From: Candidatus Cloacimonadales bacterium
GTDB lineage: Bacteria; Cloacimonadota; Cloacimonadia; Cloacimonadales; JAFGVF01
Assembly: GCA_963677495.2 (NCBI GenBank)
Contig: CAXXOU010000004.1
Coordinates: 448,001 to 512,000, forward strand
Direction: 5' to 3'
DNA: 64,000 nucleotides
The notes below the pieces were generated by a model, which was given only the letters and a program-made list of their open reading frames with translations, had not been told where the DNA came from and made no database searches. Of the stretch, positions 5,465 through 60,951 are shown piece after piece. Within the stretch, counting starts at the first letter, position 1. Each line of letters begins with the position of its first letter. The position numbers and the translations under genes were made by a program.

Positions 5465-5917
5465 TCATACAATCCAACTATCCAAACTCTGATATCTCGT
5501 CACCTTTGGTAGAAGCTCATTCTCAACAGCTTCACTGATTGTTCTGATTGGTAGGGCATTATCAATAATGTAAGTAATATCAATTGTCTTCAAATCAATC
5601 TCCGGATGTAGCTTCTTGAGTTTATACATCATAATCGTAAAGACATTGTAGGCATTATAGATACATTTTTCACCTACTGTCTCCAAGTTTCTGTTTGTTG
5701 CATAGTCCATTAGGTCGATTCTGTAAGCATCAGATGTGCTGTGATATAACCGACTAAGGTTTTGTGACTGGTTCTTAAGTGTGATGTTAGTATGGTCAAT
5801 CTTTCTTCTCTTGTATGCTCTTGCAATCAATACATCGCTTTTACGGTACCTATAAAACACGAGCTTGCCGATTTTGCCTACCAGTGCTCTGGTTATTGTG
5901 TCTAATTGAACTCTCAT
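5465..5917 (-). CDS. Hypothetical basic protein (150 aa), member of an unannotated paralog family
   Basis: AAGGAG SD; N-terminal GKIGKLVFY..R; C-terminal PEIDLKT...AVENELLP also found at 21605-21772. Confidence 0.85.
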   Translation of the reverse strand: MRVQLDTITRALVGKIGKLVFYRYRKSDVLIARAYKRRKIDHTNITLKNQSQNLSRLYHSTSDAYRIDLMDYATNRNLETVGEKCIYNAYNVFTIMMYKLKKLHPEIDLKTIDITYIIDNALPIRTISEAVENELLPKVTRYQSLDSWIV

Positions 5918-6171
5918 TTCTCTCTCCTTTGTTTAAAATCAACATTTAGCATTTAGCATTTCTAACCCCTCTATTAACATAACTATCAGAAAACACTAAC
6001 TTGTATCAGAATTATTGGCATTTTTTAATTCCTCTATAATTATATAGGAATAATTTCTTGCTTTGAGGAATAAAGATATCATATTTTTTTAGGTCCTCTA
6101 TAACTATACTGGGGGAAAAAGGAGTTGATTTAGTGAAAAGAGAGTAGTTTTTTTACTTGAATGGTGCTCAA

Positions 6172-6293
6172 AAACTAGTATTGACATGTATAATCATAAA
6201 CATAGTTCTATGTTTAAACTTATGGTTTCTAAGTCTCGGTCAGTGGAAGCTGCCGACGTTGTCGGCACAGCAACTCAGGAGAGTCGCAGTACA
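6172..6293 (+). repeat. ~122-bp direct repeat, copy 2
   Basis: Matches 5340-5460. Confidence 0.92.
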
Positions 6294-6395
6294 TGTACTC
6301 GACCACAATTAATCAGTCTTTACATGTGCGATCAAGGATAATCGCTTAATATATAAACCAGCATTTCAAGCACTTCGGTGCTGGGTAAATCTGAG

Positions 6396-6494
6396 ATATT
6401 TAACCGCGGATGAACCACAGGTAAACCACGCCCAAACGGCGGGAGGCGTGGTTAACCCGTGGTTTACCCCTGGTCAACCCGTTGTCAACTGCCA
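6396..6494. repeat. 11-bp-period hairpin, family A copy 1 (unit ~AACCACGGGTT)
   Basis: Units at 6402/6413/6424, inverted units at 6447/6458/6469/6480; near reverse complement of 50396-50497. Confidence 0.9.
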
Positions 6495-6553
6495 GACTTG
6501 TGACATGGATAACACAGTCGATTCAGATGATTGTTGAAATCAGTTTTCATAAA

Positions 6554-8509
6554 CTAATTATTACCTAAAGGGAATGTTATCTCGAACCTTGTTCCTTTTC
6601 CAACTTCGCTAAAACATTGAATGGAACCGGACTGTTTGTTAACAAGTTCTTTCACAAGTACCATGCCCATACCTACACCCTTTTCATTAGCTGTACCTAT
6701 AATAGAATCTGAAACCAGCTCAAAGATTGTGTCAGCTTTTTCTTGTGGCATACCAACACCTGAATCTTTAATTGTTAAAATCAAGCTCTGAACATCCCTT
6801 TCTTCAGAAACTACAATTTTACCACTTTCTGTTGAGTATTTAATGGCATTTTGAACAATGTTCCTGAAAATAGTTTTTAATGAGATATACTCAGCAGTGA
6901 TTGTTGAATTGCTTGCAATACTGTTCTCAATAAAAACACCTTTGTCTTTAAGACGTTTCTTAAAGAAGTTTATAATCTCTTCAAAACAATCAAAAAGATA
7001 TATCTCCTCTTTTGATCTTTCAAGTCCGGATATTACTTCTTTACTCCAGCCAACAAGATCTTCTGTCAATTTGTATGTTTTGCTAACAGTCTCTTTTATG
7101 TTAATCAAAACCACATCATCATGATAGAAGTCGTCAGGTTTATCAATGAGTTGTAACATCTGGTCAACAATACCCATCGGTCCCCTTATATCATGAGTTA
7201 TAATAGAGATCAATTTATCACGTATGCTCTTCTCCTCTTTAAGGTTAGCTAGATTATTTATGAGAAGTGCTTTATCATGCGCAAGTTCGTAATTTAAGTA
7301 TTTAAGCTCATTCAGTTTCTCTTGATAAGCAGAAAGAGCAATAGAATCGTTACTTTCATTTAATGTGGAGTTTATATCTTCTATGGAAGTAGCGTATGCA
7401 TCAGTTCTACTTTTCTTTAAAAACTCATTGTAGTTGGTAGACCATTCTAATGCTTGTTCAAACTCTCCAATAGCTTTGTAATAGCTAATTCTTAAATCAG
7501 GTAAATTCATATGAAACTTGTCATCTGTAAGAGTATCTGATAAGTCTAGGTATTTCTTCACTGTATCATAATCTTCTAGCTTCATAGAACAGCTCATAAT
7601 CATCTGATAGAAGTTTAAGCGTTCATGGTTACTTTCTTTAGACTCTACCAGCTCAAGTACACTCATTAACAGATCAAGTGCTTCTTGATACTTCTCTAAA
7701 GTATAAAGGTAGGAGCTCTTTATTCTCGTGTTAGCAAAACTATAATGTAGGTAGTAACTGTTGATACTAGTTTCTGAAAGCTTAAAATTGGGTTGAAGTT
7801 CATTAAATTGCTTATCAAATCTATCAAGATACTCTTTAGCATTTTCTGGTTCATTCATTAGAATATGACATGAAGCAAGATTATTAAAAATAAGAGGTAA
7901 TAATTTACTTTTATCCGGCTCAGAGATAGTATCAATTGCCATAAGAAAATAGTGAATAGCTTGATCGAAATTGCTTAGTGCCATATAGGTTACACCAATA
8001 TTGGTCAGAATTCTATAGAAGAGAGGGGACTCATCCTGATTATACTTGTTTGAAAATGTGTATGCTTGCATTAAATGCCATAAAGCTTTTCGATATTCAG
8101 CACGGTTCTTGTAGATAACAGCAATGTTTGAGTGAACATCCATTAGCAACTCATTTGTATCCTCACTAGTACAGTTACGGAGAGCTTCCTGATAATAATG
8201 GAGTGATTCATCAAGCTTACTGAGCTGAGATTTAATAATACCAAGGTTAGAGAAGAATCTGACCTTCTGCTCCTGTTCACCAAAATCTCTAACTATATCA
8301 ATACTTTTCTCAGCAGTAATCTCCAGTGATTTAAAGTCATATGTAAACACGAAATCGGAATGCAACTGTAATAGGATTAAATCAATACCCTCTTTACTTG
8401 GTAAAGTATACTTGGACTTTAATTCTAACATAAGATTTTTGAAGGCAGACTTATCCTGTGTTGCTATGTATTGTTTTAGTTCTTTCTTTTCCTGTTTGAA
8501 GCTCATCAC
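6554..8509 (-). CDS. TPR-repeat sensor histidine kinase (orphan, no transmembrane segment seen)
   Basis: N-terminal TPR-like repeats; H-box THDIRGP, NAIKYS, DSGVGM, GVGMGM and GKGTRF. Confidence 0.9.
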   Translation of the reverse strand: MMSFKQEKKELKQYIATQDKSAFKNLMLELKSKYTLPSKEGIDLILLQLHSDFVFTYDFKSLEITAEKSIDIVRDFGEQEQKVRFFSNLGIIKSQLSKLDESLHYYQEALRNCTSEDTNELLMDVHSNIAVIYKNRAEYRKALWHLMQAYTFSNKYNQDESPLFYRILTNIGVTYMALSNFDQAIHYFLMAIDTISEPDKSKLLPLIFNNLASCHILMNEPENAKEYLDRFDKQFNELQPNFKLSETSINSYYLHYSFANTRIKSSYLYTLEKYQEALDLLMSVLELVESKESNHERLNFYQMIMSCSMKLEDYDTVKKYLDLSDTLTDDKFHMNLPDLRISYYKAIGEFEQALEWSTNYNEFLKKSRTDAYATSIEDINSTLNESNDSIALSAYQEKLNELKYLNYELAHDKALLINNLANLKEEKSIRDKLISIITHDIRGPMGIVDQMLQLIDKPDDFYHDDVVLINIKETVSKTYKLTEDLVGWSKEVISGLERSKEEIYLFDCFEEIINFFKKRLKDKGVFIENSIASNSTITAEYISLKTIFRNIVQNAIKYSTESGKIVVSEERDVQSLILTIKDSGVGMPQEKADTIFELVSDSIIGTANEKGVGMGMVLVKELVNKQSGSIQCFSEVGKGTRFEITFPLGNN

Positions 8510-8733
8510 TCCTCCCGAAACAAACTATAACATTAACGGCGTTTGTGTCAATGTTTGAAAGTGATCTCCATTCATTTTGCTGAGTGCTAAGATCCAATAA
8601 TTACTACAAAATGTACCGGTAGTAATTGTTAAGAGAAGGTGTTTAGAAACCCTTACAGTTTCTTGAATTATAAAACAATTGACATTAGGGACAATACAAA
8701 AAGTTTGAAATCATTAATAATCCGGGAGAAGAG

Positions 8734-10002
8734 ATGATTGATAAGATAGATGTTAATGTTACTTCGGAGATTGGTGAGTTAGAGGGCGTGATCCTTCACC
8801 GTCCGGGAAGAGAAATTGAGAATATGACCCCTCAGAATGCTGAAAGAGCATTATATAGTGATATTTTGAATCTTGCAGTTGCAGACAATGAGTATAATGA
8901 TTTCAGAGGGGCTTTGGATATTCTAACAAATACTTATGAGATCAGAGACTTACTCACTGAAATCCTCAGGAACGATAGAGTTAAATTTAACCTAGTTGAA
9001 AAGATTTGTAGATATGAGGACAGGCAGATACTTGTTGAAGGTCTTATGAAACTTGGGCCTGAGGAGCTTACTCGCCAGTTGTTTGAGGGTGTTGTCATGA
9101 GAAAGAACAATCTCACAAACTTTTTGAGCAAAGAAAAATACAGTCTCAGACCCCTTCATAACTTCTTCTTCATGAGAGATGCTTCAATATCAGTATTAGA
9201 TGAAGTGCTTATCGGTAAGATGGCAAACCAGGTACGTGAACGTGAATCCATAATTATGGAAGCGATATTCGATTACCATCCAAACCTTCAGACAAGAACT
9301 TTTAATCCATTGAACAGTAAGAATGTTCCACCTGAGCATATTACTATTGAGGGTGGAGACGTGCTTATTGCCAGAGATGATACTTTACTTATTGGTATCG
9401 GTGGTAGAACGACTTCTCAAGGTATCGATTATCTTATTGAATACTACAAGCATAAAAAAGAAAAGTTTAATATTGTAATACAAGAGCTTCCTCTTCAACC
9501 TGAATCTTTCATCCATCTTGATATGGTGTTTACTTTCCTTAATACCCATGAATGTATGGTCTATGAACCGGTTGTGCTTAAGCCAAATAGACTTGAAACT
9601 GTTTGTATTAAGATTGATAATGGCAAGGTGCTGATAGAAGCAAAGAAAAACCTTTTAGAGGCTCTAAAAGAACTAGATTTTGACCTTGAACCAATTCATT
9701 GTGGAGGCCCATCAAGTAAATGGACTCAAGAGAGAGAACAGTGGCACAGTGGTGCTAACTTCTTTGCTGTTGGACCGGGAAAGGTATTAGGTTATAATAG
9801 AAACGTACATACACTTGATGAGCTTAGTAAGCATGGATATGAGATTCTCAATGCAAAAGAGCTTATTGCTGGTAAAGTTAATCATAATGACTATGAGAAG
9901 TTCGTAGTTGCTATTGATGGGGCAGAGCTTGCACGAGGTGGTGGTGGTTGTCGTTGTATGTCAATGCCGATTAGAAGAAAATCTGTTGATTGGAGTCTTT
10001 AA
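8734..10002 (+). CDS. arcA: Arginine deiminase
   Basis: V.SEIG.L..VILHRPG, FFMRD, EGGD, HLD and RGGGG.RCMS motifs. Confidence 0.92.
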   Translation: MIDKIDVNVTSEIGELEGVILHRPGREIENMTPQNAERALYSDILNLAVADNEYNDFRGALDILTNTYEIRDLLTEILRNDRVKFNLVEKICRYEDRQILVEGLMKLGPEELTRQLFEGVVMRKNNLTNFLSKEKYSLRPLHNFFFMRDASISVLDEVLIGKMANQVRERESIIMEAIFDYHPNLQTRTFNPLNSKNVPPEHITIEGGDVLIARDDTLLIGIGGRTTSQGIDYLIEYYKHKKEKFNIVIQELPLQPESFIHLDMVFTFLNTHECMVYEPVVLKPNRLETVCIKIDNGKVLIEAKKNLLEALKELDFDLEPIHCGGPSSKWTQEREQWHSGANFFAVGPGKVLGYNRNVHTLDELSKHGYEILNAKELIAGKVNHNDYEKFVVAIDGAELARGGGGCRCMSMPIRRKSVDWSL

Positions 10003-11985
10003 TTGGGAAACCTTGAAGGTTTATTAATAGAGTATTTTGAGAGCGAAGGTCTTCAGTATGGCTACGTACTGAAACATAGTAATAATCAAGTTCATATTAT
10101 TAACTTAAAGGGTAGACAACAGAAGTTTACTGTTAACAGAATTGTTGTAACACATTCAAAGATACCTGAGACTCAGCTTAAAGATATATCAGAACAATTT
10201 GAAAGCTCTATATCAAAGCTCCAAGAGGAGATTGATGTGGAGCTTCTTTGGGAAATGGTCAAAGACAATACAGAGACCTTATCCCTTTTTGAACTCTCGG
10301 ATATCTATTTCGATAACCCTTCATCAAAGCAACAGTCAGCACTAATTAGAGCAATTAGAACAGAAGCTCTTTGCTTTAAGTTGAAAGGTTTGCTTTTCAC
10401 ACCTCGAACAAAGGAACAGATTGAAGAACTTAGACTTCAAAGAGAGATAGAAGCACAGAAATCTGAATATATTGCAAGTTTAAAACTCCTTTATTCGAAA
10501 GTAAATAGGAGTGATGAGTTTACCCCTAGTACAGAGGAAATTGAGGTACTGAAAAGTATTTACTCCTACCATTTTGACTCAATTGAATATAAGTACTCAG
10601 ATGAACTTAAGCTTTTGAATAAAACCAAGGCTGAGAACGAAATCATTGTTGAACTTCTTAAAGGAACAGGTTTCATTCCGAATGATACTGATAAGTTTGT
10701 TGCATTGGCAGGGCTGAAGTATGATTTCACTGATGAACAAGTTCAGGAAGCTGAGAACTTAGAACCATATTCTCATGACAGCTCCAGAATAGTAATTGAT
10801 CATGAGTATTGCTTCAGCATTGATGACCCCGGAACAACTGAGATTGATGATGCAATATCAGTAGATATTGATGGGAATTTAGTATCTCTTGGTATCCATA
10901 TTGCAGATGTACAATCATTTGTAAAGAAAGACTCAGTTTTAGATAGAGTTGCAAGAGAACGTTGCTCCTCTTTGTATATGGAAACTGGTTCGATCCCGAT
11001 GTTCCCGGAGAAGTTATCTTCGCTTCATACTAGTTTGATTGATAATGAACCACGACCGGTGATGACTTACCTAATTAAGTATGACCTTGAGAAGGAAGAG
11101 ATTGTTTCGAAAGATGTTTTACGTGGAGAAGTAGTAGTTAAGAGCAAGCTTTCCTATGATTATTCAGATGAATTGCTAGAGAAATGTGAAGACGGTTTAA
11201 GTAATGCACTTAGAAGTGTTGAATCTGTATGCAAGAGATTGAGGAGACAGCGTTTTGAAAATGGAGCGATAGAGATACTTAGACCTGAAATTCAACTTAG
11301 AGTTGAGGGAGATGAGATATTAATCAATAACATTAATCGCTGGTCTAGAAGTAGAAGACTAATTGGTGAGTTGATGATATTTATTAATAACCTGGCCGGA
11401 CAATTCTGTCGGGACAATAATATTCCTACTGTTTTTAGAGTGCAGGAGGAACCGGAGCAACCTGTACCTGAACTTGGAGATAATGTAAGCTATGATCCTG
11501 TTCTTACGGATAAACTTATAAGGTTTATAAGACCATCAAAGATGAGTACTACAGCATCGGGGCATAGTGGGTTGGGAATTGATGCCTATTCACAGCTTAG
11601 TTGTCCGATTAGAAGGTATGCTGATCTGGTAGTACAAAGGCAGGTTTCAGCTTTTGTTGCTGGTAGTGAGTTACCATATACTCTAGAAGAGATTTATGGA
11701 GTTATAGCAGATGTAGAAGATGTAACTCGACAGCATAGAACTATGTATCAGGACTCAGCTAATTACTGGTATCTAAGATATTTGCAGAAGCATTGTTTGG
11801 ATCATATATTTGATGCTACAGCAGTGTATCGTAACCGAAACAGAGTGACTTTTGAACTCGACTTGTTTGGTAAAAGAGCTACTGTTAATACTATGGATAC
11901 AGAGTATGCTTTGGGAGATAAAGCTCAACTTAGAATTGAGAAGATTGATCCTGAGAAAGGAATTCTCAAATTTAAGATTGACTAA
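10003..11985 (+). CDS. RNB-domain exoribonuclease (RNase II/R family)
   Basis: SIDDPGTTEIDDA, HIADV and PIRRYADL motifs; TTG start abutting the arcA stop. Confidence 0.88.
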   Translation: MGNLEGLLIEYFESEGLQYGYVLKHSNNQVHIINLKGRQQKFTVNRIVVTHSKIPETQLKDISEQFESSISKLQEEIDVELLWEMVKDNTETLSLFELSDIYFDNPSSKQQSALIRAIRTEALCFKLKGLLFTPRTKEQIEELRLQREIEAQKSEYIASLKLLYSKVNRSDEFTPSTEEIEVLKSIYSYHFDSIEYKYSDELKLLNKTKAENEIIVELLKGTGFIPNDTDKFVALAGLKYDFTDEQVQEAENLEPYSHDSSRIVIDHEYCFSIDDPGTTEIDDAISVDIDGNLVSLGIHIADVQSFVKKDSVLDRVARERCSSLYMETGSIPMFPEKLSSLHTSLIDNEPRPVMTYLIKYDLEKEEIVSKDVLRGEVVVKSKLSYDYSDELLEKCEDGLSNALRSVESVCKRLRRQRFENGAIEILRPEIQLRVEGDEILINNINRWSRSRRLIGELMIFINNLAGQFCRDNNIPTVFRVQEEPEQPVPELGDNVSYDPVLTDKLIRFIRPSKMSTTASGHSGLGIDAYSQLSCPIRRYADLVVQRQVSAFVAGSELPYTLEEIYGVIADVEDVTRQHRTMYQDSANYWYLRYLQKHCLDHIFDATAVYRNRNRVTFELDLFGKRATVNTMDTEYALGDKAQLRIEKIDPEKGILKFKID

Positions 11986-12073
11986 CTAATAGTACTTTGT
12001 TCGGTAGGTTAAACTGATTCCTCGGGAATCAATCCTTTTTGTAATTACAATAGAAAAATATATAGAGGAAGCC

Positions 12074-14053
12074 ATGAAAAGTAACGTTAATCCTCAGGAG
12101 AACTACAAAAGAACCCGTGACCTTTGTGGTTGGGTACCTCGTAGTGAAGCAACTCGTAAAACTTATGAAGATATAGGCTTCATGAGTGGTTTAGAAGTTC
12201 ATCAACAACTCAATTCTAAGAAGAAGCTATTCTGTCGATGCCCGGTTGGAATATATCAGGATGCCGAAGATTTCGATACAGAAATTGTCAGGCATATGCG
12301 CCCAACTCTTAGTGAACTTGGTGAGTACGATGGTACAGCTTTAATGGAGTTCAAGACAAAGAAAGAGATTGTCTACAGAATTAAGAATGTCACAACATGT
12401 ACTTATGAACTTGATGATACTCCACCCTTCCCTGTTAACAGAGAAGCATTAGCAATTGCAACAGAAATCTCTCTTCTTCTTAAACAGAATCTTGTTGGAG
12501 AATTTCATATAATAAGAAAGCAATACCTTGATGGTAGTATTCCAACCGGATTCCAGAGAACCGGTATTATCGGTATCGAAGGTGAGATTTATCCGAAAGG
12601 TCGACGTGTTGGCATTATTCAGCTTAGTATTGAGGAAGACTCATGCCGTGAAGTTTCTGATATTGGGCATAGAAGAATTTATAGAACAGACAGACTCGGT
12701 GTTCCACTAATTGAAGTAGTTACTTATCCTGATATGAAAGAACCCGATGAGGTGCGTGATGCAGCAGAATACATCAGATACCTAACCAGAAGTACCGGCA
12801 AAGTAAGAGTCGGTATTGGTGCCGGACGTGAAGATGTAAACGTTAGTGCTACGGGTGGTACAAGAATAGAGATAAAGGGTGTTGCCCATATTAGCTGGAT
12901 TCCGGAGCTTACACATAATGAAGCTTTCCGCCAAAGAAGTCTTGTGCTACTGAGTGAAGAGATTAAGAAACGCAAAATAGATTTTGAGAAATGGGATATT
13001 ACTTCATCGGTTCTTCCTGCTGAACATGTAGCCGGAATGGTTCCAGAAGAGTTTGATTTAGAAGGGAAGAAAGTAGTTTCTGTTAATCTTCCTGACTTTA
13101 AAGGTTTACTAAGCTGGTTCACACAACCTGGTCAGACTTTTGGTAGTGAGATTAGTCAGAGACTGAGAGTGGTTGCCTGTCTTAATCAACCAAACATGAC
13201 TCATTCAGAAGCTCTCAATCCAATATTTGATGAGCAAGGTTTTGCTCATATTGCAAATGCACTCAAAGCAGGAGAAAATGATGCACAAATAGTATTCTTT
13301 GCCCCTGATGAGGATATAGAGACCGCTCTTGAAACAATCAAAGAACGTTGTCAGATGGCATGTGATGGTGTGCCTAAAGAGACTAGAAAGTCATTTGAAG
13401 ATGGAACAACAATCTTTGAACGTGTGCTTCCGGGTGCAGATAGAATGTACCCTGATACTGATTCAGCTCCAATACCAATCGAAGAAAGTTTTATCGAAGG
13501 AATCAGAGCCCAGATGCCTAAGTTCTTACAAGAACAGATTGCTCTTTTACATGAATGGGAAGCTCCTGAAGATACTCATGATTATCTCCTAAGAAATAAC
13601 CTTATTAGTTGGGTAGAGCTTATTGCGAATAGGTATGAGATTGACCCAAGTAAAGTTGTAACTTTAATCGCTCATAGATTGAAAGAGCTTGAAAGAAAGC
13701 ATGATGGAATCATCAACTTAGAAAACATACTTGCCATGTTCGAGTTCCTTAAAGAACACAGAATGAATTATGAGTATGCTTATGAGATGCTTAAATATGT
13801 CTATCTGAATCCTCATGATGACATGCAGGATTGCGCTGTGAAAGCGGGACTTACAATCGTGCATCCTGATTCAATCGATGAACTTATTAAAGAGGAGATT
13901 GCTAAACTTAATGAGCAGCAAGCAGCTCTTGACGTTGCACCTAAAACTAAGTACATTATGGGTAGACTTAGATTCAGAGTGATTGGTAACCTTCCAATGG
14001 AAGCTGTTGCTGAATCTATCACAGCAATCCTTACAGGTAGAGAGGAGGAATAA
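12074..14053 (+). CDS. gatE: Glu-tRNA(Gln) amidotransferase subunit E (archaeal type)
   Basis: GLEVHQQL..KKLFCRCP, DGS.PTGFQRT, DRLG.PLIE and PGADRMYPDTD; has the insertion domain that is absent from GatB. Confidence 0.93.
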   Translation: MKSNVNPQENYKRTRDLCGWVPRSEATRKTYEDIGFMSGLEVHQQLNSKKKLFCRCPVGIYQDAEDFDTEIVRHMRPTLSELGEYDGTALMEFKTKKEIVYRIKNVTTCTYELDDTPPFPVNREALAIATEISLLLKQNLVGEFHIIRKQYLDGSIPTGFQRTGIIGIEGEIYPKGRRVGIIQLSIEEDSCREVSDIGHRRIYRTDRLGVPLIEVVTYPDMKEPDEVRDAAEYIRYLTRSTGKVRVGIGAGREDVNVSATGGTRIEIKGVAHISWIPELTHNEAFRQRSLVLLSEEIKKRKIDFEKWDITSSVLPAEHVAGMVPEEFDLEGKKVVSVNLPDFKGLLSWFTQPGQTFGSEISQRLRVVACLNQPNMTHSEALNPIFDEQGFAHIANALKAGENDAQIVFFAPDEDIETALETIKERCQMACDGVPKETRKSFEDGTTIFERVLPGADRMYPDTDSAPIPIEESFIEGIRAQMPKFLQEQIALLHEWEAPEDTHDYLLRNNLISWVELIANRYEIDPSKVVTLIAHRLKELERKHDGIINLENILAMFEFLKEHRMNYEYAYEMLKYVYLNPHDDMQDCAVKAGLTIVHPDSIDELIKEEIAKLNEQQAALDVAPKTKYIMGRLRFRVIGNLPMEAVAESITAILTGREEE

Positions 14054-15435
14054 TGAGCGATAATACACAAGGATATAAAGGCCCTAGTAAAGCTATTCTT
14101 GAGAAGTTCAATGTTCGAGTTTGGGGGGATACTGAGATTCTCACCACTCGTGGTACTTTTAAAGGTATCATTCTTCCAAGAGCCGAGAACGATGATGACC
14201 AGCACATTGTACTTAAACTTATTACAGGTTACAATGTTGGTATCGACATAAAGACTATTACTGATATGAAAGAGATTGGTTATAAGAAAGCCAATTATAA
14301 GATCCCTGAAAAAGAGTTCCCATATACAGAAGGTATGCCAAACCTAAAGCTCTTTGGTACCGGGGGTACAATTGCATCACGTCTTGATTATAGAACCGGT
14401 GCTGTAATTCCGGCTTTCTCACCAGGTGAACTGTATGGTGCTGTACCTGAGCTTGCGGACGTATGTAATCTGAAGACTGAGAAGCTATTTGCAGTGTTCA
14501 GTGAGAACATGGGACCTCGGCAATACAAAGAACTAGCCATTGCTATTGGTAAAGAGATTGAGAATGGCATAGATGGTATCATGATCGGTCATGGTACCGA
14601 TACTCTTCACCACACAGCTGCTGCTTTAACTTTTATGGTACAGAACTCACCTGTACCTATCGTACTTGTTGGTTCTCAACGCTCTTCCGATAGACCTTCA
14701 TCTGATGCTGCTTTAAATCTTATTCATGCTGCAAAAGCTGCAGGTGAATCTGATATAGCTGAAGTAATGATCTGTATGTTTGGTCCTACCTCTGATGAGT
14801 ATGGTTTATTGCATAGAGGAACAAGAGTTCGTAAGATGCACTCATCTTTTAGATCAACATTCAGAACCATCGGTGACGTACCTCTAGCTACAATTAATAG
14901 AGATGAGATTAATACAATTAAGCAGAATTATAACAAGCGTAGAAGTGATAACAATGTTACTATCAAACCTTTCTTCGAAGAGAAAGTGGGAATGGTCTAT
15001 TATTACCCTAATATGCAACCGGATATGATCGATTCAATGGTTGATAATGGGTACAAAGGTATTGTTATTGCAGGCACCGGACTTGGTCATGTTAACAAAC
15101 CACTTTACCCTGCAATTGAACGTGCAGTGAAGAAAGGTGTTCATATCTTCATGACTGTTCAAACTCTTTGGGGATATGTTCATATGTTTGTTTATGACAC
15201 AGGTCGTGATCTTATGGCAAAAGGCATTATTCCTGCTGAGAATATGCTACCTGAAGTTGCATACATCAAACTCGGCTGGGCTATTGGTCAGACTGATGAT
15301 CCGGAAGAGGTTAGAAAGCTTATGCTTACACCTGTTAATGGTGAAATCACAGAAGGTGAACCATATAATAGTTACCTTATCTTCCAGGGTGGTACTCCTG
15401 AAGTCGAGAAGTTCATCAAGAATATTCATTTATAG
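14053..15435 (+). CDS. gatD: Glu-tRNA(Gln) amidotransferase subunit D (asparaginase fold)
   Basis: N-terminal KL..GYNVG domain; TGGTIASRLDYRTGAV, HGTDT, GSQRSSDRPSSD and RKMHS. Confidence 0.94.
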   Translation: MSDNTQGYKGPSKAILEKFNVRVWGDTEILTTRGTFKGIILPRAENDDDQHIVLKLITGYNVGIDIKTITDMKEIGYKKANYKIPEKEFPYTEGMPNLKLFGTGGTIASRLDYRTGAVIPAFSPGELYGAVPELADVCNLKTEKLFAVFSENMGPRQYKELAIAIGKEIENGIDGIMIGHGTDTLHHTAAALTFMVQNSPVPIVLVGSQRSSDRPSSDAALNLIHAAKAAGESDIAEVMICMFGPTSDEYGLLHRGTRVRKMHSSFRSTFRTIGDVPLATINRDEINTIKQNYNKRRSDNNVTIKPFFEEKVGMVYYYPNMQPDMIDSMVDNGYKGIVIAGTGLGHVNKPLYPAIERAVKKGVHIFMTVQTLWGYVHMFVYDTGRDLMAKGIIPAENMLPEVAYIKLGWAIGQTDDPEEVRKLMLTPVNGEITEGEPYNSYLIFQGGTPEVEKFIKNIHL

Positions 15436-15456
15436 CTTATAACTTAATTGATAAAT

Positions 15457-15488
15457 GCCCTAAAGTTGCATACTTTAGGGCTTATTTT
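15457..15488 (+). terminator. Rho-independent terminator after gatD
   Basis: GCCCTAAAGT-tgcat-ACTTTAGGGC followed by TTATTTT. Confidence 0.8.
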
Positions 15489-15565
15489 ATACTCAGGGTC
15501 TTCTATGAAATGCTGAAAACTTGGTTTTCATAGCTTTCATAATTAGATTGAAAGAAAGCTTGCTT

Positions 15566-15817
15566 GTTGGAATCATAGCGATTACTCATTACAACTGTCG
15601 TAATGATTCTAACAACAGAATCACCTACACAGTGGCTTTTGCAATAACTTAGCTATATTTACTGCCCTTTTATCCCTCTTTAACTGCTCTATCCATCAAC
15701 GCACTGTGTTTGCACTGTGCACGCACTGTGATCCCACTGTCAACCCACTGTTTCACTGGGTGCACAGTGCGTGCACAGTGGAAAAACAGTGGGATGACTG
15801 CGTTTTGGTGGATAGTT
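15566..15817. repeat. 11-bp-period hairpin, family B copy 1 (unit ~GCACTGTG), with upstream accessory hairpin
   Basis: Five CACTG units then three inverted ACAGTG units, closed by CTATCCATCAA/TTGGTGGATAG; homologous to 32896-33075. Confidence 0.9.
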
Positions 15818-15850
15818 TAATGAAAGTTTGCGATAACGAAAATATGATTG

Positions 15851-16513
15851 CTAAGGAACAACAATTTTGAAGCTACAGCAGTCATCGCCTTTAGCAACAG
15901 ATTTGAGAATCGAGATGTGAACATCTTTACCTGTGATATACTCCCAGATAGCTTTGTAGAACCCGGCACCACAATAGCAATAGACAGTATCTTTACTCTC
16001 ATCGGTTAACAAAGTTTCACGGTATAGAGGACAATGACAGTATATTGATGCACGTTTTTTGGGGTCCGTTTCATGGAAGTACTCTTGGATATGTCCGCTC
16101 TTCGGTATCTTAGTTGCTATTACTGTTCTACCAATCAAGTTACCAGCTGATCCCCATTTTTGCTCAATTATAGTATGCTTGATATTATCAGAGATTTGTA
16201 GTTTGTCCAATAAGGCAATAAACTGTTGTTGGAGCATAGAATGTGCTTCCTCTAAACTCTTGTGTTTCAGGTAAACATCCCGAATTGAATCCAGCTTCTC
16301 TGGAGGATATTGACATGAGACACAAAACAGCAATTCTATAATTCCTTCTTCTGTAAAAGATGCTCGTAAAAGCTCTAAGAATCGCTTTACTTCGAAACTA
16401 CTCTCCTTGCCTGAGATGTAAACATAATCAAGTGTCTGTACTAATCCTCTTTGCTCTAAAAGAGGTATGATTTTAGAGGCCCAGTAATCGAAGAAACCTT
16501 TATCAAAACTCAT
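15851..16513 (-). CDS. Cys-rich hypothetical protein (DUF6144-like)
   Basis: YCHCP, YCYCGAGFY..IWE and KSV.KGDDCC.F; ATG at 16513 has an AGGAG SD. Confidence 0.75.
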   Translation of the reverse strand: MSFDKGFFDYWASKIIPLLEQRGLVQTLDYVYISGKESSFEVKRFLELLRASFTEEGIIELLFCVSCQYPPEKLDSIRDVYLKHKSLEEAHSMLQQQFIALLDKLQISDNIKHTIIEQKWGSAGNLIGRTVIATKIPKSGHIQEYFHETDPKKRASIYCHCPLYRETLLTDESKDTVYCYCGAGFYKAIWEYITGKDVHISILKSVAKGDDCCSFKIVVP

Positions 16514-16663
16514 ATCTACTCCTAATGCTAAGTTGAATAGTAAATCTGTGACTGTCAAAAAGATATTTCTTTATTTTGAAAATCAGATTAATCTATCTAG
16601 TCTCATAAAGCAAAAGATAGTCTTGTGTAACATTTTATACTTGACTGTTAAAGGAAATTAAAA

Positions 16664-17851
16664 TTGAAAACATATATGGATTATACTACAACATTCCCGG
16701 ATTATGAAGAAAATGGAATACTGAACTTGATTGCAGCTTTTAGGGAAGCCGGTGGAGATAAGGATTGTGCTTATAAAGCTCTTGATTTAAACTTACCTAA
16801 AGCATTAAACGAATATGATAATTGTATATTTCTTGTATTAGATGGGTTAGGCTATAATTACTTGCAGAGAAAAGGTGAAGGTACGTTTATTAAAGAGCAT
16901 TTGGAAGGTAAACTATCAACTGTTTTCCCTTCAACAACAGCTTCTGCGATTACCTCTTTCCTGACTGGTGTTTCTCCTAGTGAGCATTGCCTTACAGGCT
17001 GGTTCACATATGTAAAAGAGTTAGCTACTGCTACAACAATTCTCACCTTCTCTCCCAGGTATTCAAACATGACGTTTGATCGATTGGGTGTGGAAAGTGA
17101 CAAGATATATCATTTTGATGGTGTTGCAGATAAGATGGATTATAGATTCTATCATATATCTTCAAATCATATTCTTAATACACCCTTTGCTTTATCGCAT
17201 TCAGGGAATGCAACTAGAATGGGATATGACGATGTTTTGGAAATACCGAACATTGTTAATGATGTTCTGAGCCAAAAAGTTGGTGAAAAGAAGTTCCTAT
17301 TCCTGTATATTTCAACTTTTGATAAAATCTCACATCAGTATGGGATTGATAGTGATGAATCCTATGCTCATATGCTCAAATTGGATGGCTTGGTTGGTGA
17401 TATTAGCAGAATCGTTATGAAGTCTAATTCAGTATTTATTGCATCTGCTGATCATGGCTTTGTGAATGTTACTTCTGACAAGATTATTCGAATGGAGGAA
17501 CATCCCCGATTACAAGAATGCTTGACTATGCCTTTAATGGGAGAACCACGAACTCCATTCTGTTACGTTCGACCTTCTAAGGTTGATAAGTTCCTCAAGT
17601 ACATAGAAGAAAACTTAAACTATTGTTGTGAAGTGAAACCTTCAGAACAAGTGATTGAAGAAGGTTGGTTTGGACCTGATAAGGAGAATTCGGGACTCTT
17701 CGAACGAGTAGGAGATTATATTCTCTTCATGAAAGACAACTACGTATTTCAAGATAACTTACCGGTGGAAGATAAGTTTGAGTTTAAAGGATACCATGGA
17801 GGAAAAACAGCAGAAGAAATGTATGTTCCGATACTTATCTTTAACAAATAG
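16664..17851 (+). CDS. Alkaline phosphatase superfamily nucleotide pyrophosphatase/phosphodiesterase
   Basis: LDGLG, TVFPSTT, D..SH.YG, ADHG and GYHGG...EEM.VP. Confidence 0.88.
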   Translation: MKTYMDYTTTFPDYEENGILNLIAAFREAGGDKDCAYKALDLNLPKALNEYDNCIFLVLDGLGYNYLQRKGEGTFIKEHLEGKLSTVFPSTTASAITSFLTGVSPSEHCLTGWFTYVKELATATTILTFSPRYSNMTFDRLGVESDKIYHFDGVADKMDYRFYHISSNHILNTPFALSHSGNATRMGYDDVLEIPNIVNDVLSQKVGEKKFLFLYISTFDKISHQYGIDSDESYAHMLKLDGLVGDISRIVMKSNSVFIASADHGFVNVTSDKIIRMEEHPRLQECLTMPLMGEPRTPFCYVRPSKVDKFLKYIEENLNYCCEVKPSEQVIEEGWFGPDKENSGLFERVGDYILFMKDNYVFQDNLPVEDKFEFKGYHGGKTAEEMYVPILIFNK

Positions 17852-17980
17852 TAATATTTGATAGTCAACTTAAATCCTAAATAATCGTAATGAAATAAAA
17901 CCTTGCCAAAAAAGGAAATGCTTTCTATTCTTGAAAAGAAATGATTATATTTATATAAATTCGACTATTTAGGAGTATAG

Positions 17981-18280
17981 ATGAAAGAGCAAAAAAAGCA
18001 ATTAAACGTGAAAATTGATGAGAATGTTGGTGAGGGTATCTATTCAAATTTCTTTGTAATTACAAACTCCCCGGCTGAATATATCCTTGATTTCGGTAAA
18101 CTTATGCCTGGATTACCTTCAGCTAAGATAGTCAGCAGAATACTGACAACTCCACAGCATGCGAAGCAAATGATGCTAAATCTTCAGAAGAATATTGAGA
18201 TGTATGAAAAACAACATGGAGAGATTAAAGTTACAGGTCAACAAGAACATAACAATAAAATTGGCTTTCAAAAAGAATAA
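17981..18280 (+). CDS. DUF3467-family protein
   Basis: G.YSNF..I..S..E.ILDF and RI..TPQHAK; AGGAG SD. Confidence 0.8.
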   Translation: MKEQKKQLNVKIDENVGEGIYSNFFVITNSPAEYILDFGKLMPGLPSAKIVSRILTTPQHAKQMMLNLQKNIEMYEKQHGEIKVTGQQEHNNKIGFQKE

Positions 18281-18315
18281 ATTTATTAACTAACCTAACT
18301 TACATTGGAGGTAGA

Positions 18316-20130
18316 ATGAAGCAATGGATTAAGTTATGGCTATTACTTTTAGTTTCCGCACTAATCTTGGTTGGTTGTTTAAATGACGGTGATGATGATG
18401 TCCCTCATTTTAACGAGATTTCAGAGTTAGAGGTTCCTGAGAATTTTGATTGGAACAATATTCAAGAAGTTAATGTTGATGTGACTGTGATTGGTTTACC
18501 GGAAGCAAGAGCAAATTCAAGAGTTGAACTGCTTGATGAGTCAGGTCAGATTCTTACAGCCGGTATTCTTCAAGACAACACTGTAATGTTAAAAGCTAGA
18601 TATAGTGACCTTGGTGGTAACCTTCAAGTGTATTTACCGGCATTCAACTTAGTTAAACGTCTTAAAGGTGGATTAGTCGATTATAAAGTTACTCTTCAAA
18701 TATCGAATGTTGAAAGTAAGGATTGTGTAAACTTGTTTGGCAATCCCGGATTCGAAGATAATCAGGAATACGATGATGGTGGAGACGATGACGATGACGA
18801 TGGTGAATGGGAAGAAAGTTCTGACCTAACTGGTGTTTTGTATCCTGCTCCGCAGAATTATCACCCACCTATTGATGGTAACTGGTATTACTATCAGCAA
18901 AACAATAATCATAATATAAGACTTGTTGAGCAAAACAATAATACTTATGTTTCATTAGCAAAACATAGTTTCCTTTATCAGGCAGTAGCTGTAAACGGAG
19001 GTGGTGAAGCCAGCTTCCAGTTTGATATTAGTAATTATAATTGGAACTATTTTAGCTTACAGATACATCTTACAAGCTATGCTGCTGATGGTTCAATGAC
19101 CGGTGATGAATACATATACTATAATTCATATTGGGATGGTATTTATGGTGATTGGCAGAATCTAAGCCATGATTTTGTTGTTCCTGATAACACCGTAGAA
19201 ATTGCTTTCACACTGTATGTTAACTCAAACACAGTTAGATTTTGGGTAGATAACTTTGGATTATGTTTGGAAAACCAGTTAGTTGACACTGATAATGATG
19301 GTGTAAGCGATGAAGAAGATGATTATCCTGATGACCCGACTAAATCAGTAAAAGTGAAGTACCCGACACAAGGTCAGCTTATTGTAGCTTTTGAAGACTT
19401 ATGGCCTGATATGGGTGACTATGACTTTAATGACTTGGTATTAGGTGTAAACCAAGAGTTTGGCTTAAACGCGAATAATGAATATACTTACATTAAAACT
19501 GATCTGGAAGTTCGAGGTAATGGTGCAACTATCAATAATGTTTTAGCAATGCAACTAGATTGGTTAGAGTCAATCGGTGGAACTAACACCTATACTCACG
19601 TTGGAGATAACAATATGCAGCTTGTCCCTTCAAATGGCGATATGTTCATTGATGGAAACAAAGTTGTCATTATTAATGGTGTACTTGATGGCTTAAGCCC
19701 ATACTATCAAAACAACGGTATCGGAGTTTCAGCAAGCTATCAGAACTTTAGCTTTGAAGTGACAATGGACCCAATTAGTAGTACAACTGCGTCACTTTCA
19801 CCAGATTTCTTTATCTACGATTACTTCAATCCTCAGAAAGAGATTCACTTACCTGGTAGACCTGCTACAGCAAATGCAGACATGAATCTTTTTGGAACAG
19901 GTGATGATGCATCTATTCCAACCAGTGACATCTGGTATGTGACTGATACTAATCTCCCTTGGGGATTTGAGATTATAGATCATACAGGCAACTATATGCA
20001 TCCGCTTGAGAATATCTCGATTTTGAATGCATATCGCTACTTCGGTAACTGGGCTAATTCCGGTGGACTCTCTCATATGGATTGGTTCTTGGATGCTGAT
20101 AATGATTCTGTATATCATACATCTTACTAA
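18316..20130 (+). CDS. LruC-domain (DUF4842) lipoprotein
   Basis: Lipobox LVGC; DTDNDGV.D..DDYP.DP, AFEDLWP..GDYDFNDLV, EIHLPG and NLPWG. Confidence 0.88.
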   Translation: MKQWIKLWLLLLVSALILVGCLNDGDDDVPHFNEISELEVPENFDWNNIQEVNVDVTVIGLPEARANSRVELLDESGQILTAGILQDNTVMLKARYSDLGGNLQVYLPAFNLVKRLKGGLVDYKVTLQISNVESKDCVNLFGNPGFEDNQEYDDGGDDDDDDGEWEESSDLTGVLYPAPQNYHPPIDGNWYYYQQNNNHNIRLVEQNNNTYVSLAKHSFLYQAVAVNGGGEASFQFDISNYNWNYFSLQIHLTSYAADGSMTGDEYIYYNSYWDGIYGDWQNLSHDFVVPDNTVEIAFTLYVNSNTVRFWVDNFGLCLENQLVDTDNDGVSDEEDDYPDDPTKSVKVKYPTQGQLIVAFEDLWPDMGDYDFNDLVLGVNQEFGLNANNEYTYIKTDLEVRGNGATINNVLAMQLDWLESIGGTNTYTHVGDNNMQLVPSNGDMFIDGNKVVIINGVLDGLSPYYQNNGIGVSASYQNFSFEVTMDPISSTTASLSPDFFIYDYFNPQKEIHLPGRPATANADMNLFGTGDDASIPTSDIWYVTDTNLPWGFEIIDHTGNYMHPLENISILNAYRYFGNWANSGGLSHMDWFLDADNDSVYHTSY

Positions 20131-20145
20131 TAACTAAATAAAATT

Positions 20146-20171
20146 AAAAGAGCACCTTCGGGTGCTCTTTT
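20146..20171 (+). terminator. Rho-independent terminator
   Basis: AAAAGAGCACC-ttcg-GGTGCTCTTTT. Confidence 0.85.
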
Positions 20172-20233
20172 ACATGCAACCCAATCACGCTGATCGGTCT
20201 TGGACTAAAATCAAAAAACTCTTGGGAACTAAT

Positions 20234-20756
20234 ATGTATAGGAAACTGATAATACTTTTAATTTCTTTTTCAATCATTGCATGCAGTAAGCATAAGAAAA
20301 TCTTGAAGCCGGTGAATATGTCTAATCGTAGAACTCCGATGTTCTGGTACGATAACGTGGATGGAGAGTTGAGAGCTAATGGATATGCATGCAAAAGGTC
20401 TATTAGAAGCGCAAAGACTTTTGCAAAAAATGAGAGTATGATTAATTTAGCTAATATGATTAAGCAAGAAGCTATGAGCTTTATAAATGAGAATTTTAGT
20501 GACACTGACGCACAAGCTCTATCAACAATGTTTAATCAGAACGAGACGATTAAACTGTCCGGATACAAAGAAGCAGGGTGTGAAGTTAGAGAGGAAAAAG
20601 AAAGGTAAGAATACCTTCTTTGAATGTTACTATCAAGCTTCAGTTAAAGATGAGCAAGTTCTAAACATACTTTTAAATCAACTTAACTCATTACCTCAAA
20701 CTGAAGAAAGAGACTTGCTTCTGGAAGCTATTAACAAAAAACAAAATGGGGAGTAA
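20234..20756 (+). CDS. Lipoprotein (LPP20-like), frameshifted near 20600
   Basis: MYRKLIILLISFSIIAC lipobox; continues in another frame (KGKNTFFECYYQA...) after an A-rich run. Confidence 0.65.
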
Positions 20757-20761
20757 TACGC

Positions 20762-21457: not shown

Positions 21458-21476
21458 GGGTAGATGTGTGGTAAAA

Positions 21477-50395: not shown

Positions 50396-50497
50396 TGGCA
50401 TACTCGACCACGGGTTGACCACGGGTAAACCACGGGTTAACCACGGCTCCCGCCGTTTAGGCGTGGTTTACCCGTGGTTCATCCGAGGTAAAATATG
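50396..50497. repeat. 11-bp-period hairpin, family A copy 2
   Basis: Four ACCACGG units then inverted CGTGGTT units; near reverse complement of 6396-6494. Confidence 0.9.
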
Positions 50498-50650
50498 TCT
50501 TTGGTGGCAGACTGAGCATAAAGAATTAATGATTATCTTTGAACAATCTTTCCGGTAAAGATTTAGGAGAGATACAAATAATTATTGACTATGATATAAT
50601 ATTGTAGATAAGTTACATAAATAAATATTGAAGGAAGGAGATAAGGCACG

Positions 50651-56512: not shown

Positions 56513-56704
56513 TTAATCAAAAATAAAGATTTCCTCTATGGATAACTTAAACACTTTTGCGATATCATATGCAAGTTTAAGCGAAGGATTGTATTTTCCT
56601 TTCTCAAGAAACACTATGGTTTCTCGTCTCACTCCAACGGCTTTGGCTAGTTGGCTTTGAGTGATGTCATCCCTAGCTCTGAGCTCTTTAATCCTTGTTT
56701 TCAT
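56513..56704 (-). CDS. XRE-family HTH regulator
   Basis: [25 protein letters not shown]. Confidence 0.9.
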
Positions 56705-57101
56705 TGTATGTAAACCTTATAATGATATAAGAGATAATGAAAGTCAACACACTTAAAAAGAAACCGATACCCATTAGTGATTCAATTGATTCAATTTTAC
56801 TTCCAAATCTATCCAATTCTATCCAGATAAATAGATTTAGTCCACCTGCTAAAGCATATGCCCTATTCCTAATTTTTAGAGACAGCTCATCATTTTCAGG
56901 TTCACCAGCACGTTTTCTTTTTATCGTTGTGTAAATAATTATAAATAGCAAAACTACAACCGCAAGCACATACGCAAAATCTAACAGACATGAGCTGTTT
57001 AATAAATCAGTTTTTTCAAGCACTTTCAAGATGATTACTACAAATAACTGGTGAATCATTATTCCCATACCAAAATGTAAAAGTGGAACATGTTTCTTCA
57101 T
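56688..57101 (-). CDS. Small membrane protein paired with the XRE regulator
   Basis: About 4 hydrophobic segments, E.DE motif, GGAGG SD. Confidence 0.75.
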
Positions 57102-57226
57102 TACACCTCCTCATGTTATAAATATATAACACAAAGTTAGAAATAAATAACTATGAGTCAACTTCTTTTTTTATATAAGCACGAGGTTTGTGTACTCTTT
57201 AGCAATTCAGTTACACGCTTTATCCC

Positions 57227-57356
57227 ACTCTTTCAACTCACGGGAGACGGAGGGGATTTCATCGCGAATACAACGGGAATTACTCGAGCAAAGCCCCGAG
57301 AGAGTCCCGAGTGATTCCCGGGAGATTCCCGTGTGAGTCCCGATAATTGAAAGAGG
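57227..57356. repeat. 11-bp-period hairpin, family C copy 1 (unit ~TCCCGAG)
   Basis: CGGGA-type units at 57241/52/63/74 and (T/C)CCCG units at 57294/305/316/327/338; closing stem CTCTTTCAA/TTGAAAGAG. Confidence 0.85.
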
Positions 57357-57430
57357 GCATAGGGAGAGCTTGAAGAATGTGAGATTATATTCCGTTGACA
57401 TGAAATTGCAGGTAATAGTAATTAGCGAGT

Positions 57431-59614: not shown

Positions 59615-59641
59615 AAAAAGGGTCATACAGGATGACCCTTA
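59613..59641. terminator. Terminator between convergent relA and rfbB
   Basis: AAAAAAGGGTCAT-acagg-ATGACCCTT. Confidence 0.75.
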
Positions 59642-59645
59642 AATG

Positions 59646-60704
59646 TTATCTATTGGAGTAGTTTGTTTCTATCCATTTCAGATAGTCACCACTTTTAATG
59701 TCATCCATCCACTCTTTGTTGGACAGATACCATTTAATCGTTTTTCTAATGCCTGCAGCGAAATCAACACTTAGTTTAAATCCAAGTTCATCTTTTAACT
59801 TGTCCATATTGATTGCATAACGCCAATCATGACCAGGTCTATCCTTCACATAAGTGATTAATTGTTTGTAATAGTCTTTCTCTTTACCAAGTTCTTCTGC
59901 CATTAGTTCACAAAGGGTATGAACAATGTCAATGTTACGTATTTCGTTCTCTCCACCAATGTTATATGTCTCACCCTGTTTACCTAATTGAATAATATTC
60001 CATATTGCTCTACAATGGTCTTCAACATAAAGCCAATCTCGAACATTGAGTCCTTTACCATAGATAGGAAGAGGTTTCATCTCTAACATATTGTTTATCA
60101 TTACAGGTATGAGTTTCTCAGGGAACTGATAAGGTCCATAATTGTTGGAACAATTTGAGATAGTGACAGGAAGGTTGTATGTGTGGAAATATGCACTTAC
60201 CAAATGATCACTTGCTGCTTTTGAAGCTGAATATGGAGAATGTGGGTCATAGGCCGTAGTTTCATAAAAGAAGCCTTCATCAGTCAGCGAACCATATACT
60301 TCATCAGTTGAAACATGGTGGAAAAGAACATCAGTTCTATCCTTCCATAGCTTTCTGGCACATTCTAAAAGATTGAATGTACCATTGATATTTGTATCTA
60401 TAAATTCTTTTGGTCCTGTAATTGATCTATCCACATGACTCTCAGCAGCAAAATGGACTATTGTGTCAGGATTGTATTTTTCAAACACTTTTTCAAGTGC
60501 ATCGTAGTCTGCAATATCTACTTTTTCAAAATGATAATTATTGGAGTAGTTCTTCTGAATATCATTTAAACTAAGAGGATTCCCTGCATAAGTAAGTTTA
60601 TCAACATTGATAATCTTTATCTCGTCTTTATGTTCTGAAAACAGAAAATGAATGAAATTAGAACCGATAAAACCAGCTCCTCCGGTTATAAGTATAGTCT
60701 TCAT
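59646..60704 (-). CDS. rfbB: dTDP-glucose 4,6-dehydratase
   Basis: TGGAGFIGSN, AAESHVDRSI, STDEVYG, YSASK, NNYGP and DRPGHD.RY. Confidence 0.95.
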   Translation of the reverse strand: MKTILITGGAGFIGSNFIHFLFSEHKDEIKIINVDKLTYAGNPLSLNDIQKNYSNNYHFEKVDIADYDALEKVFEKYNPDTIVHFAAESHVDRSITGPKEFIDTNINGTFNLLECARKLWKDRTDVLFHHVSTDEVYGSLTDEGFFYETTAYDPHSPYSASKAASDHLVSAYFHTYNLPVTISNCSNNYGPYQFPEKLIPVMINNMLEMKPLPIYGKGLNVRDWLYVEDHCRAIWNIIQLGKQGETYNIGGENEIRNIDIVHTLCELMAEELGKEKDYYKQLITYVKDRPGHDWRYAINMDKLKDELGFKLSVDFAAGIRKTIKWYLSNKEWMDDIKSGDYLKWIETNYSNR

Positions 60705-60852
60705 AATACCTCATGTCAGTTTACTTAGTTAACAAGAACAAATATAAAAGATTAAGGGTCAAGTTAAAAAAAGAAGTAGAAACAATTTTCAAAAACAGTC
60801 CCAATATAATGCGGTATATCTTTTTGTTTGTTAACGGAGTTGTTCTTCTCAT

Positions 60853-60951
60853 TTATAATCTTCGGGACTAATAGGGGATCTTAATTGGAATTTGTAGGGA
60901 TTACTCGGGCAAAGTCCCGCGAGATTCGTGCGAAAGTCCCGAGTATTATAA
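60853..60951. repeat. 11-bp-period hairpin, family C copy 2 (diverged)
   Basis: Shares the centre ATTACTCGRGCAAAGYCCCG with 57279-57298; closing stem TTATAAT/ATTATAA. Confidence 0.78.

Follow-up and report, generated by a model that had tools for sequence, protein, structure and literature searches.

The stretch of DNA analysed here, hereafter the window, is 64,000 nucleotides long and comes from a Candidatus Cloacimonadales bacterium (assembly GCA_963677495.2, contig CAXXOU010000004.1, positions 448,001 to 512,000). Its genome, G000, comprises 3.41 Mb in 4 contigs with 37% GC and is 99.5% complete; the relatives of its proteins come from Candidatus Cloacimonadota. Our subject is a set of dispersed elements in which short words recur every 11 bp, and a family of small proteins whose genes lie downstream of some of them. 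The member in the window, P0001, is a 150-residue protein encoded at 5465-5917 on the reverse strand, with a basic N-terminal three-strand module and a helical C-terminal part, and is the candidate partner of array family A. A family A array lies about 475 bp upstream of it (6393-6490, reverse strand), with four CCACG words followed by four inverted ones; it is one of 39 copies. A promoter-like motif of putative function that ends in TAGAGG is present three times at 5968-6102 on the same strand, at -58, -121 and -185; of 120 family genes, 33 have a looser form of it in the 400 bp upstream, where 5.3 were expected. P0001 and its promoter region stand between the two copies of a 104-bp direct repeat (92%) of a different palindromic family (5357-5460 and 6190-6293).

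The remaining elements in the window are on the forward strand. Family B (CACTG words, 65 copies) is represented at 15617-15824, with its array at 15696-15797, and again at 32886-33082, with its array at 32965-33055; its partner paralog, L010, is elsewhere in the genome. A family Cw element (21480-21585, 7 copies, no intact partner found) is followed directly by a remnant of a P0001-family gene (21596-21748, forward strand), in which only residues 93-143 are recognizable (E=1.2e-5). The family H element at 39481-39612 (12 copies, partner paralogs L014 and L005) has a one-sided array and a DnaA-type box at 39564-39572, and the family D element at 40030-40185 (41 copies, partner paralogs L012 and L015) has an outer stem around an array at 40109-40167. 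The family N array at 43466-43530 is single in G000; N is also found upstream of paralog L111 in the sister genome G048. A second family A array, a solo copy, lies at 50401-50500. Family C (21 copies, partner paralog L006) is present as an element with an outer stem and an array at 57288-57343 (57225-57360) and as a decayed element at 60856-60950. Two open reading frames (ORFs), 56688-57101 and 20862-21179, were judged not to be partners.

An earlier note on this DNA had named ten such loci and called for a lag-11 scan against shuffled controls. When the genome was scanned in this way, 17 matches of 22 being the minimum for a locus, 229 intergenic loci and 5 coding ones appeared at lag 11, 6 intergenic loci at lag 10 and 7 at lag 12, and 0, 0 and 0 intergenic loci in three local shuffles. 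All ten named loci do carry words at the 11-bp period: the program TRF finds this period at eight of them, and the other two, at 21477 and 60853, escape both TRF and the lag scan and are weaker, yet BLAST places both in multi-copy families. The positions 40031 and 57227 proved to mark the outer stem, some 60-80 bp before the start of the arrays. Types A, B and C each occur twice in the window, A on opposite strands, as had been described, and there are no spacers between the repeats, in agreement with the view that these are not CRISPR arrays. Contigs from four sequencing runs of one sample agree over 4500-22500 except for a 1-base gap, and the loci in that region are therefore not assembly artefacts; read depth rises over the B element, as it should for a high-copy repeat. 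Joints in contigs with short sides (23-27 letters) were judged to be repeat artefacts. At 20593, one base is absent from the contigs of all four runs, and the assembly may hold a 1-base error near the ORFs at 20162-20608.

Nineteen hand-picked seeds were used in BLAST searches and yielded 300 non-redundant copies in 16 families: B 65, D 41, A 39, E 36, F 24, G 24, C 21, H 12, J 8, L 8, Cw 7, K 6, O 3, P 3, M 2 and N 1. The word cores, which had been thought specific to each locus, are thus specific to families, and only the locus at 43470 (N) is single in the genome. Of the gaps between genes, 95 of 234 divergent ones contain arrays, as do 114 of 645 tandem and 36 of 162 convergent ones (raw counts, uncorrected for gap length). 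Solo copies outnumber genes by about 14 to 1, and within the large families they are 76-94% identical.

Other repeats were seen in the same genome. There are 41 intergenic lag-7 loci genome-wide; in the window, 7-bp TAGCCTA-type arrays occur at 40187-41178 and also at 5088-5123 and about 45300-45720, and arrays of this type flank, in inverted orientation, two tandem four-helix-bundle genes (PF05635/TIGR02436, with a 438-bp duplication). Lag 23 gave 35 loci in G000, and the six examined appear to be the two ends of a repeated 2.3-kb element resembling an insertion sequence (C1 126467-128821 and further copies). A separate dispersed hairpin family with a GACC...GGT core, often adjoining 11-bp arrays, is found at 21327-21458 and 33090-33200.

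The 11-bp elements are about 100-200 bp in size and contain three to five phased words, mostly followed by a switch to the reverse-complement word and often enclosed by an outer inverted repeat; the left flank is pyrimidine-rich and the right flank purine-rich. In G012, two loci (L379 and L382) have a composite upstream element of about 280 bp, in which several different 11-bp words are nested in one inverted repeat. The description of the elements as hairpins holds for four of the ten window loci, which fold as DNA far better than shuffles (z-scores -8.2, -7.1, -6.2 and -4.6); three more have z-scores of -2.7, -2.3 and -2.1, and the last three have -1.6, -1.5 and -0.2. In five of seven families the words, which were picked from the consensus, are more conserved than the linkers (A 0.92/0.84, B 0.99/0.91, C 0.93/0.81, D 0.93/0.78, G 0.91/0.78), a difference that fits protein binding. 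The other possibility raised at the outset, a structured RNA, has at best weak support and was set aside. In the window, gathering scores were reached by none of the Rfam families, and in seven loci the matches were sub-threshold microRNA hairpins only. Compensatory changes exceed all shuffles in two of ten families, C (21 against 9.4, maximum 18) and G (3 against 0.8, maximum 2), with relatedness uncontrolled; A and B, the largest two of the symmetric families, have none. Stems were not extended in a copy-specific manner in six of six families examined.

P0001 has no match among Pfam or NCBIfam families, and no Pfam match was obtained for any of 23 family members. The family is present in 96 of 151 sampled genomes of the phylum, with up to 24 copies per genome and 366 representatives at 50% identity; G000 has 22 near-full paralogs, P0001 among them, plus remnants. 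Over the first 60 residues the median net charge is +6, and in 131 sequences Gly14, Arg33 (93%) and Tyr72 (98%) are near-invariant. The predicted model of P0001 is confident (pLDDT 93.6) and has three N-terminal strands followed by helices. No relative was found by sequence in PDB, and Foldseek returned nothing at E<=0.001 in PDB or BFVD. The best matches to the model reported by VIA include ribbon-helix-helix proteins (Z 3.9, root-mean-square deviation 2.4, 48 aligned), which is below that tool's range of significance. A model without a fold match would not by itself make the predicted fold a new one.

The main result of this analysis is that array families and paralogs are paired. One clade of the protein family (7 genes in G000, 13 in the tree) is array-less save for 1 array; outside it, 14 of 15 paralogs have a known array family within 1.45 kb upstream. 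With two near-identical paralog pairs merged and only the nearest array family counted, 12 independent paralogs have 11 different families, where random draws from the 300 copies have a mean of 7.0 (P=0.0013); rare families are included, namely O (3 copies), K (6), J (8) and L (8). Among individual paralogs, L007 is paired with F and L011 with K; L016 has no array. The placement is directional: within 1 kb of a paralog, arrays are upstream in 13 of 22 cases and downstream in 0 of 22 in G000, 9 of 19 and 0 of 19 in G012, and 2 of 9 and 0 of 9 in G003. The recent duplicate L007/L009 runs from 364 bp upstream, roughly where the F element has its left end, to shortly beyond the stop codon, so that element and gene were duplicated jointly.

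The pairing is also seen across genomes. G048 is a sister genome of the same genus with 80% protein identity to G000; 800 kb of the 3100 kb of G048 were compared. Its three orthologs at 80-94% identity to an array-bearing paralog all keep the family (K, D and B), whereas among ordinary orthologs with arrays in both genomes the family is shared in 0 of 11. Three G048 orthologs at 60-68% identity have other words. Gene neighbours of the paralogs vary freely, and those of the K unit differ on both sides between the two genomes. Related proteins share words in G019 and G123, which belong to another family. For 19 of 21 arrays sampled in three genomes, the best match is in the upstream region of a paralog from that genome; one of these is the paralog's own array, which leaves 18 of 20 solo arrays.

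At the level of whole genomes, arrays and gene family co-occur. Nine genomes were sampled, at 200 kb each except for the 800 kb of G048. Those with 9-19 paralogs had 6 (G019), 7 (G003) and 8 (G012) arrays per 200 kb and 21 in 800 kb (G048), or 26-40 arrays/Mb, and those with 0-5 matches to the family had 0 (G044, G085, G020 and G032) or 1 (G045). In G048, where the partner L112 is present, 8 copies of family M were counted in 800 kb, against 2 in all of G000, where no partner is.

Comparison of G000 and G048 placed the arrays where gene order changes. There are 113 breaks among 452 gene junctions in the 800 kb, and of 24 array-bearing segments of G048 22 are at synteny breaks and 2 at small indels. 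Of 299 conserved adjacencies, none has an array in G048 and two have an A element in G000; a third match was AT-rich noise. When long gaps only are considered, arrays are present in 21 of 56 breaks and 0 of 9 conserved gaps. Copies are thus gained and lost; the arrays may cause the breaks or may settle at them. The earlier note had taken solo copies for non-autonomous remnants. This is doubtful, since they are numerous, alike and differently placed in sister genomes, and they look like a spreading population. No target-site duplication was evident in six families, in which shared flanking 7-8-mers were at shuffle level, and old copies could have lost such duplications; family C flanks had a slight 5-mer excess (8 against 4.3).

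The arrays are real, non-random and tied to an unstudied protein family. In explanation we favour, at a probability of roughly six in ten, a protein-DNA address system, a scheme in which each paralog would bind its own phased word cooperatively and sequence-specifically, with an operator-like copy before its gene and with gene-less copies that spread and pair. Each array family would belong to one paralog or close pair, the gene being 0.2-1.3 kb downstream of one array copy. The protein most likely would bind the word through its basic N-terminal three-strand module and polymerise along words one helical turn apart; with an inverted second arm, the nucleoprotein site would have two-fold symmetry. 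An operator or loading site may be provided by the array copy preceding the gene, through which the protein could regulate its own gene. Gene-less copies would multiply in genomes with an expanded gene family and come to sit at rearrangement junctions, spreading probably because protein-bound arrays pair and host recombination or repair resolves them. The suggestion that phased sites diversify with a cognate protein has acquired genomic evidence, a candidate protein and a pairing of words with paralogs, and from these we infer binding.

A number of observations weigh against this scheme. The frequency of upstream arrays in G000, 13 of 22, is little above that of genes with long upstream gaps in this genome alone (282 of 605, 47%), but in four other genomes pooled, 22 of 50 paralogs compare with 47 of 215 long-gap control genes (P=0.002, with related genes not independent). 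Best-scoring loci phylum-wide have an upstream array in 4 of 30 cases, and those in the remaining genomes in 2 of 36. One clade of 13 proteins carries only the single array mentioned above, G (24 copies), Cw, M, N and P are without a clear intact partner in G000, C and G occur in the G048 sample without a partner, and L004 and L005 each have two families upstream. The 18 of 20 solo arrays were matched without a control, and for abundant families a match at any long gap would be a frequent outcome. The synteny comparison includes just nine long conserved gaps. Finally, with words picked from the consensus, family H shows no excess of word over linker conservation (0.83/0.85) and E hardly any (0.99/0.97).

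In geometry, a close precedent is parC of plasmid R1, where two sets of five 11-bp repeats surround a promoter and ParR binds at approximately one dimer per repeat and represses its own promoter, according to the portion of the account available (PMC2241845). The likeness lies in 11-bp repeats upstream of the gene for a small, putatively DNA-binding protein. As far as the same portion goes, parC is a single site of direct repeats whose partner is an ATPase, whereas here the arms are mostly inverted and the chromosome has about 300 copies in 16 families, with 22 paralogs. The likeness of P0001 to ribbon-helix-helix folds (Z no higher than 3.9) is not significant, and PF06406, the ParM ATPase model, had no match in the genome, but control models also gave none.

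Arrays of a similar kind were found outside the phylum. In a pattern scan, the family-C word occurred in 11-bp arrays in many taxa (at least 114 stretches), and 20 of the 80 stretches taken with flanks were inspected. One of these arrays is 470 bp before a 249-residue Bacteroidota gene, P0167. Lag-11 arrays were found upstream of 6 of 12 genes of the P0167 family (1 downstream) and 3 of 5 DUF6266 (PF19781) genes, at 150-700 bp; without two genomes that had been found through the array, 2 of 8 and 3 of 4 remain. Paralog L281 of G153 is preceded by an array that shares its word with the solo copy L177. At L273 and L276, what is presumably a small divergent Xis-like helix-turn-helix gene shares the gap with the array upstream of a P0167-family gene. 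The 108-residue Bacteroidales protein of L217 (1923-2246), without a Pfam match, is downstream of a family-C-like array, has a similar Gly-containing N-terminal pattern, and is possibly a fourth partner family.

The P0001, P0167 and DUF6266 families align in register over 30-55 N-terminal residues (P 0.0066, 0.0014 and 0.0022, with HH probabilities of 6-18%), and the comparison of the P0001 family with the DUF6266 module gave P=0.0014, an HH probability of 18% and an Atlas score of 0.87. Common descent of these N-terminal parts is likely on this evidence. The DUF6266 model, however, matched none of 23 P0001-family members and nothing in the genome, and the C-terminal parts differ: that of P0167 matches Ig/FN3/C2-like folds (Z up to 5.7), whereas that of P0001 is helical. 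A capsid role for P0167 was rejected, given this C-terminal fold and no BFVD match at E<=0.001. A full-text literature search found no paper on DUF6266.

A further reading, tentative and in our estimate well short of an even chance, would unite the Cloacimonadota P0001 family and the Bacteroidota DUF6266 and P0167 families in a widespread superfamily of small proteins without a fold match, in which each protein would read its own 11-bp-phased word and would itself drive array copying and gene-block shuffling, with no known recombinase or transposase domain. Fixed-word arrays with variable linkers followed by an inverted copy have been described as orphans, with periods 7 and 8, in the part of that work available (bioRxiv 10.64898/2026.10.21.760802). 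Fixed words, variable linkers and a reverse-complement copy are shared with the present elements; the periods and phyla differ, no associated protein was found there, and the main text, to the extent available, contains neither Cloacimonadota nor DUF6266.

Among alternatives to the favoured scheme, that of the 150-residue protein as a new transposase or nickase fares best and is unlikely. It would follow the logic of repetitive extragenic palindromic (REP) sequences and their RAYT proteins, with single-stranded hairpin forms of the element cut or copied via Tyr72 and Arg33. The conservation of these residues, the defined element lengths, the outer inverted repeats of several families and the way array abundance tracks the gene family, as for M and L112, would agree with such an enzyme. 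No histidine column exceeds 18% in the 131 sequences, however, and the P0001 family therefore has no HUH motif; target-site duplications do not rise above shuffles, A and B lack compensatory changes, and the Bacteroidota look-alikes share only the N-terminal 55 or so residues and end in an Ig/FN3-like domain. In REP/REPIN-RAYT systems, as set out in the part of the source available, a genome may have several intergenic repeat classes, often inverted doublets, each flanking a cognate gene on which high abundance appears to depend (PMC3686654). To judge from that part, the population logic is common to both, the arrays here following their cognate gene family at whole-family level in nine genomes. 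The present elements differ in having phased words in 100-200 bp, with the array only 5' of the gene, and P0001-family proteins have no PF01797 match. A GT(A/G)G tag was found at both ends in 0 of 238 copies of eight families (ends taken from BLAST cores, single-end tags uncounted). That these are not classic REPs, as the earlier note held, is borne out.

Very unlikely, in our view, is that arrays and genes are independent passengers of tolerant intergenic islands, with MITE-like arrays (MITE, a miniature inverted-repeat transposable element) moved by another transposase and the pairing left by old chance insertions inherited with the gene. Arrays at 47% of long-gap control genes, the many other repeat types in the gaps, the many paralogs without arrays and the 14 Y1 transposase matches in G000 would fit it. 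Outer inverted ends, as in MITEs, occur in most copies of C, D, F, H, J and K but are not evident in A or G, and target-site duplications are not above shuffle level. One family per paralog with rare families over-represented, the upstream-only placement, retention of the family beside these genes alone (3 of 3 against 0 of 11) and the near absence of arrays from genomes poor in the gene family all count against it. A RAYT as the mover was rejected: only 3 of the 14 Y1 genes are within 1 kb of an array, and each of these arrays is of another family.

Iteron origins of plasmids and phages likewise have helically phased words, and inverted DnaA-box pairs adjoin the array in families E, F and K, with a single box in H. 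Within 100 bp of an array are all 20 perfect inverted DnaA-box pairs and 91 of the 154 perfect DnaA boxes of the chromosome; the same boxes also flank dnaA. TCCCGAG arrays (the family-C word) with an 11-bp period lie inside phage genes of viral contigs L141-L145, L148, L149, L152 and L156, genes which we take to resemble replication initiators, with the arrays placed as origin iterons would be. The N-terminal part of P0001 resembles small viral proteins in Atlas (score 0.89), which is a lead only. Nevertheless, we give least credence to the idea that the arrays are iteron-like mini-origins, or packaging or recognition sites of satellite or virus-like elements, with the protein as initiator or DNA coat and solo copies as footprints, since the pairs are confined to E, F and K and other genomes have almost none of them (0 in eight samples of 200 kb, 1 in 800 kb), the arrays are dispersed by the dozen with most families lacking DnaA boxes, no Rep or initiator family matched, one family member queried against IMG/VR, phage and plasmid records had no relative, the type-A pattern is absent from IMG/VR, and no capsid-like fold was matched.

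Since the defining tests of each known system either failed or stayed open, the arrays and their paralogs are classed outside the known families, with a mechanism that is at present putative. The candidate partner protein and the pairing of paralogs with array families are new to this analysis; no published description of such a system was found in a search that left subscription journals and supplements outside its reach.

Several other features of these genomes should be recorded. Outward-facing pairs of P0001-family paralogs, one gene from the array-less clade and one other, lie 5-9 kb apart and enclose variable genes, in G000 at C1 774903/781894, C3 291427/297242 and C4 777582/782563, 1465701/1474267 and 1498361/1503618, and in G048 at 779438/786594 and 2266215/2271634. 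In the window, 12074-15435 encodes an archaeal-type Glu-tRNA(Gln) amidotransferase pair, gatE-gatD, in a bacterium, with GatE above both NCBIfam equivalog cut-offs. In the region 21924-31421, a Rex-like regulator precedes a bifurcating [FeFe]-hydrogenase cluster, an Fe-ADH, and a sensory hydrogenase accompanied by a SpoIIE-type phosphatase.

If the favoured scheme is correct, it would explain how a class of bacterial repeats came to be abundant, and protein families that have no function assigned, DUF6266 among them, would gain a first one open to testing. One genome has some dozen pairs of paralog and word, and its relatives have more; specificity is therefore directly testable, and the pairs could give orthogonal DNA-binding parts. 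Most of the inverted DnaA-box pairs are held by three families, and 91 of the 154 perfect DnaA boxes adjoin arrays, which could influence replication control. Should the arrays promote the rearrangements that they mark, they would be an unrecognised driver of genome shuffling. If the superfamily reading is true, the elements would be persistent and selfish ones of a new class, and their protein-DNA pairs, dozens of them and orthogonal, would form a natural library.

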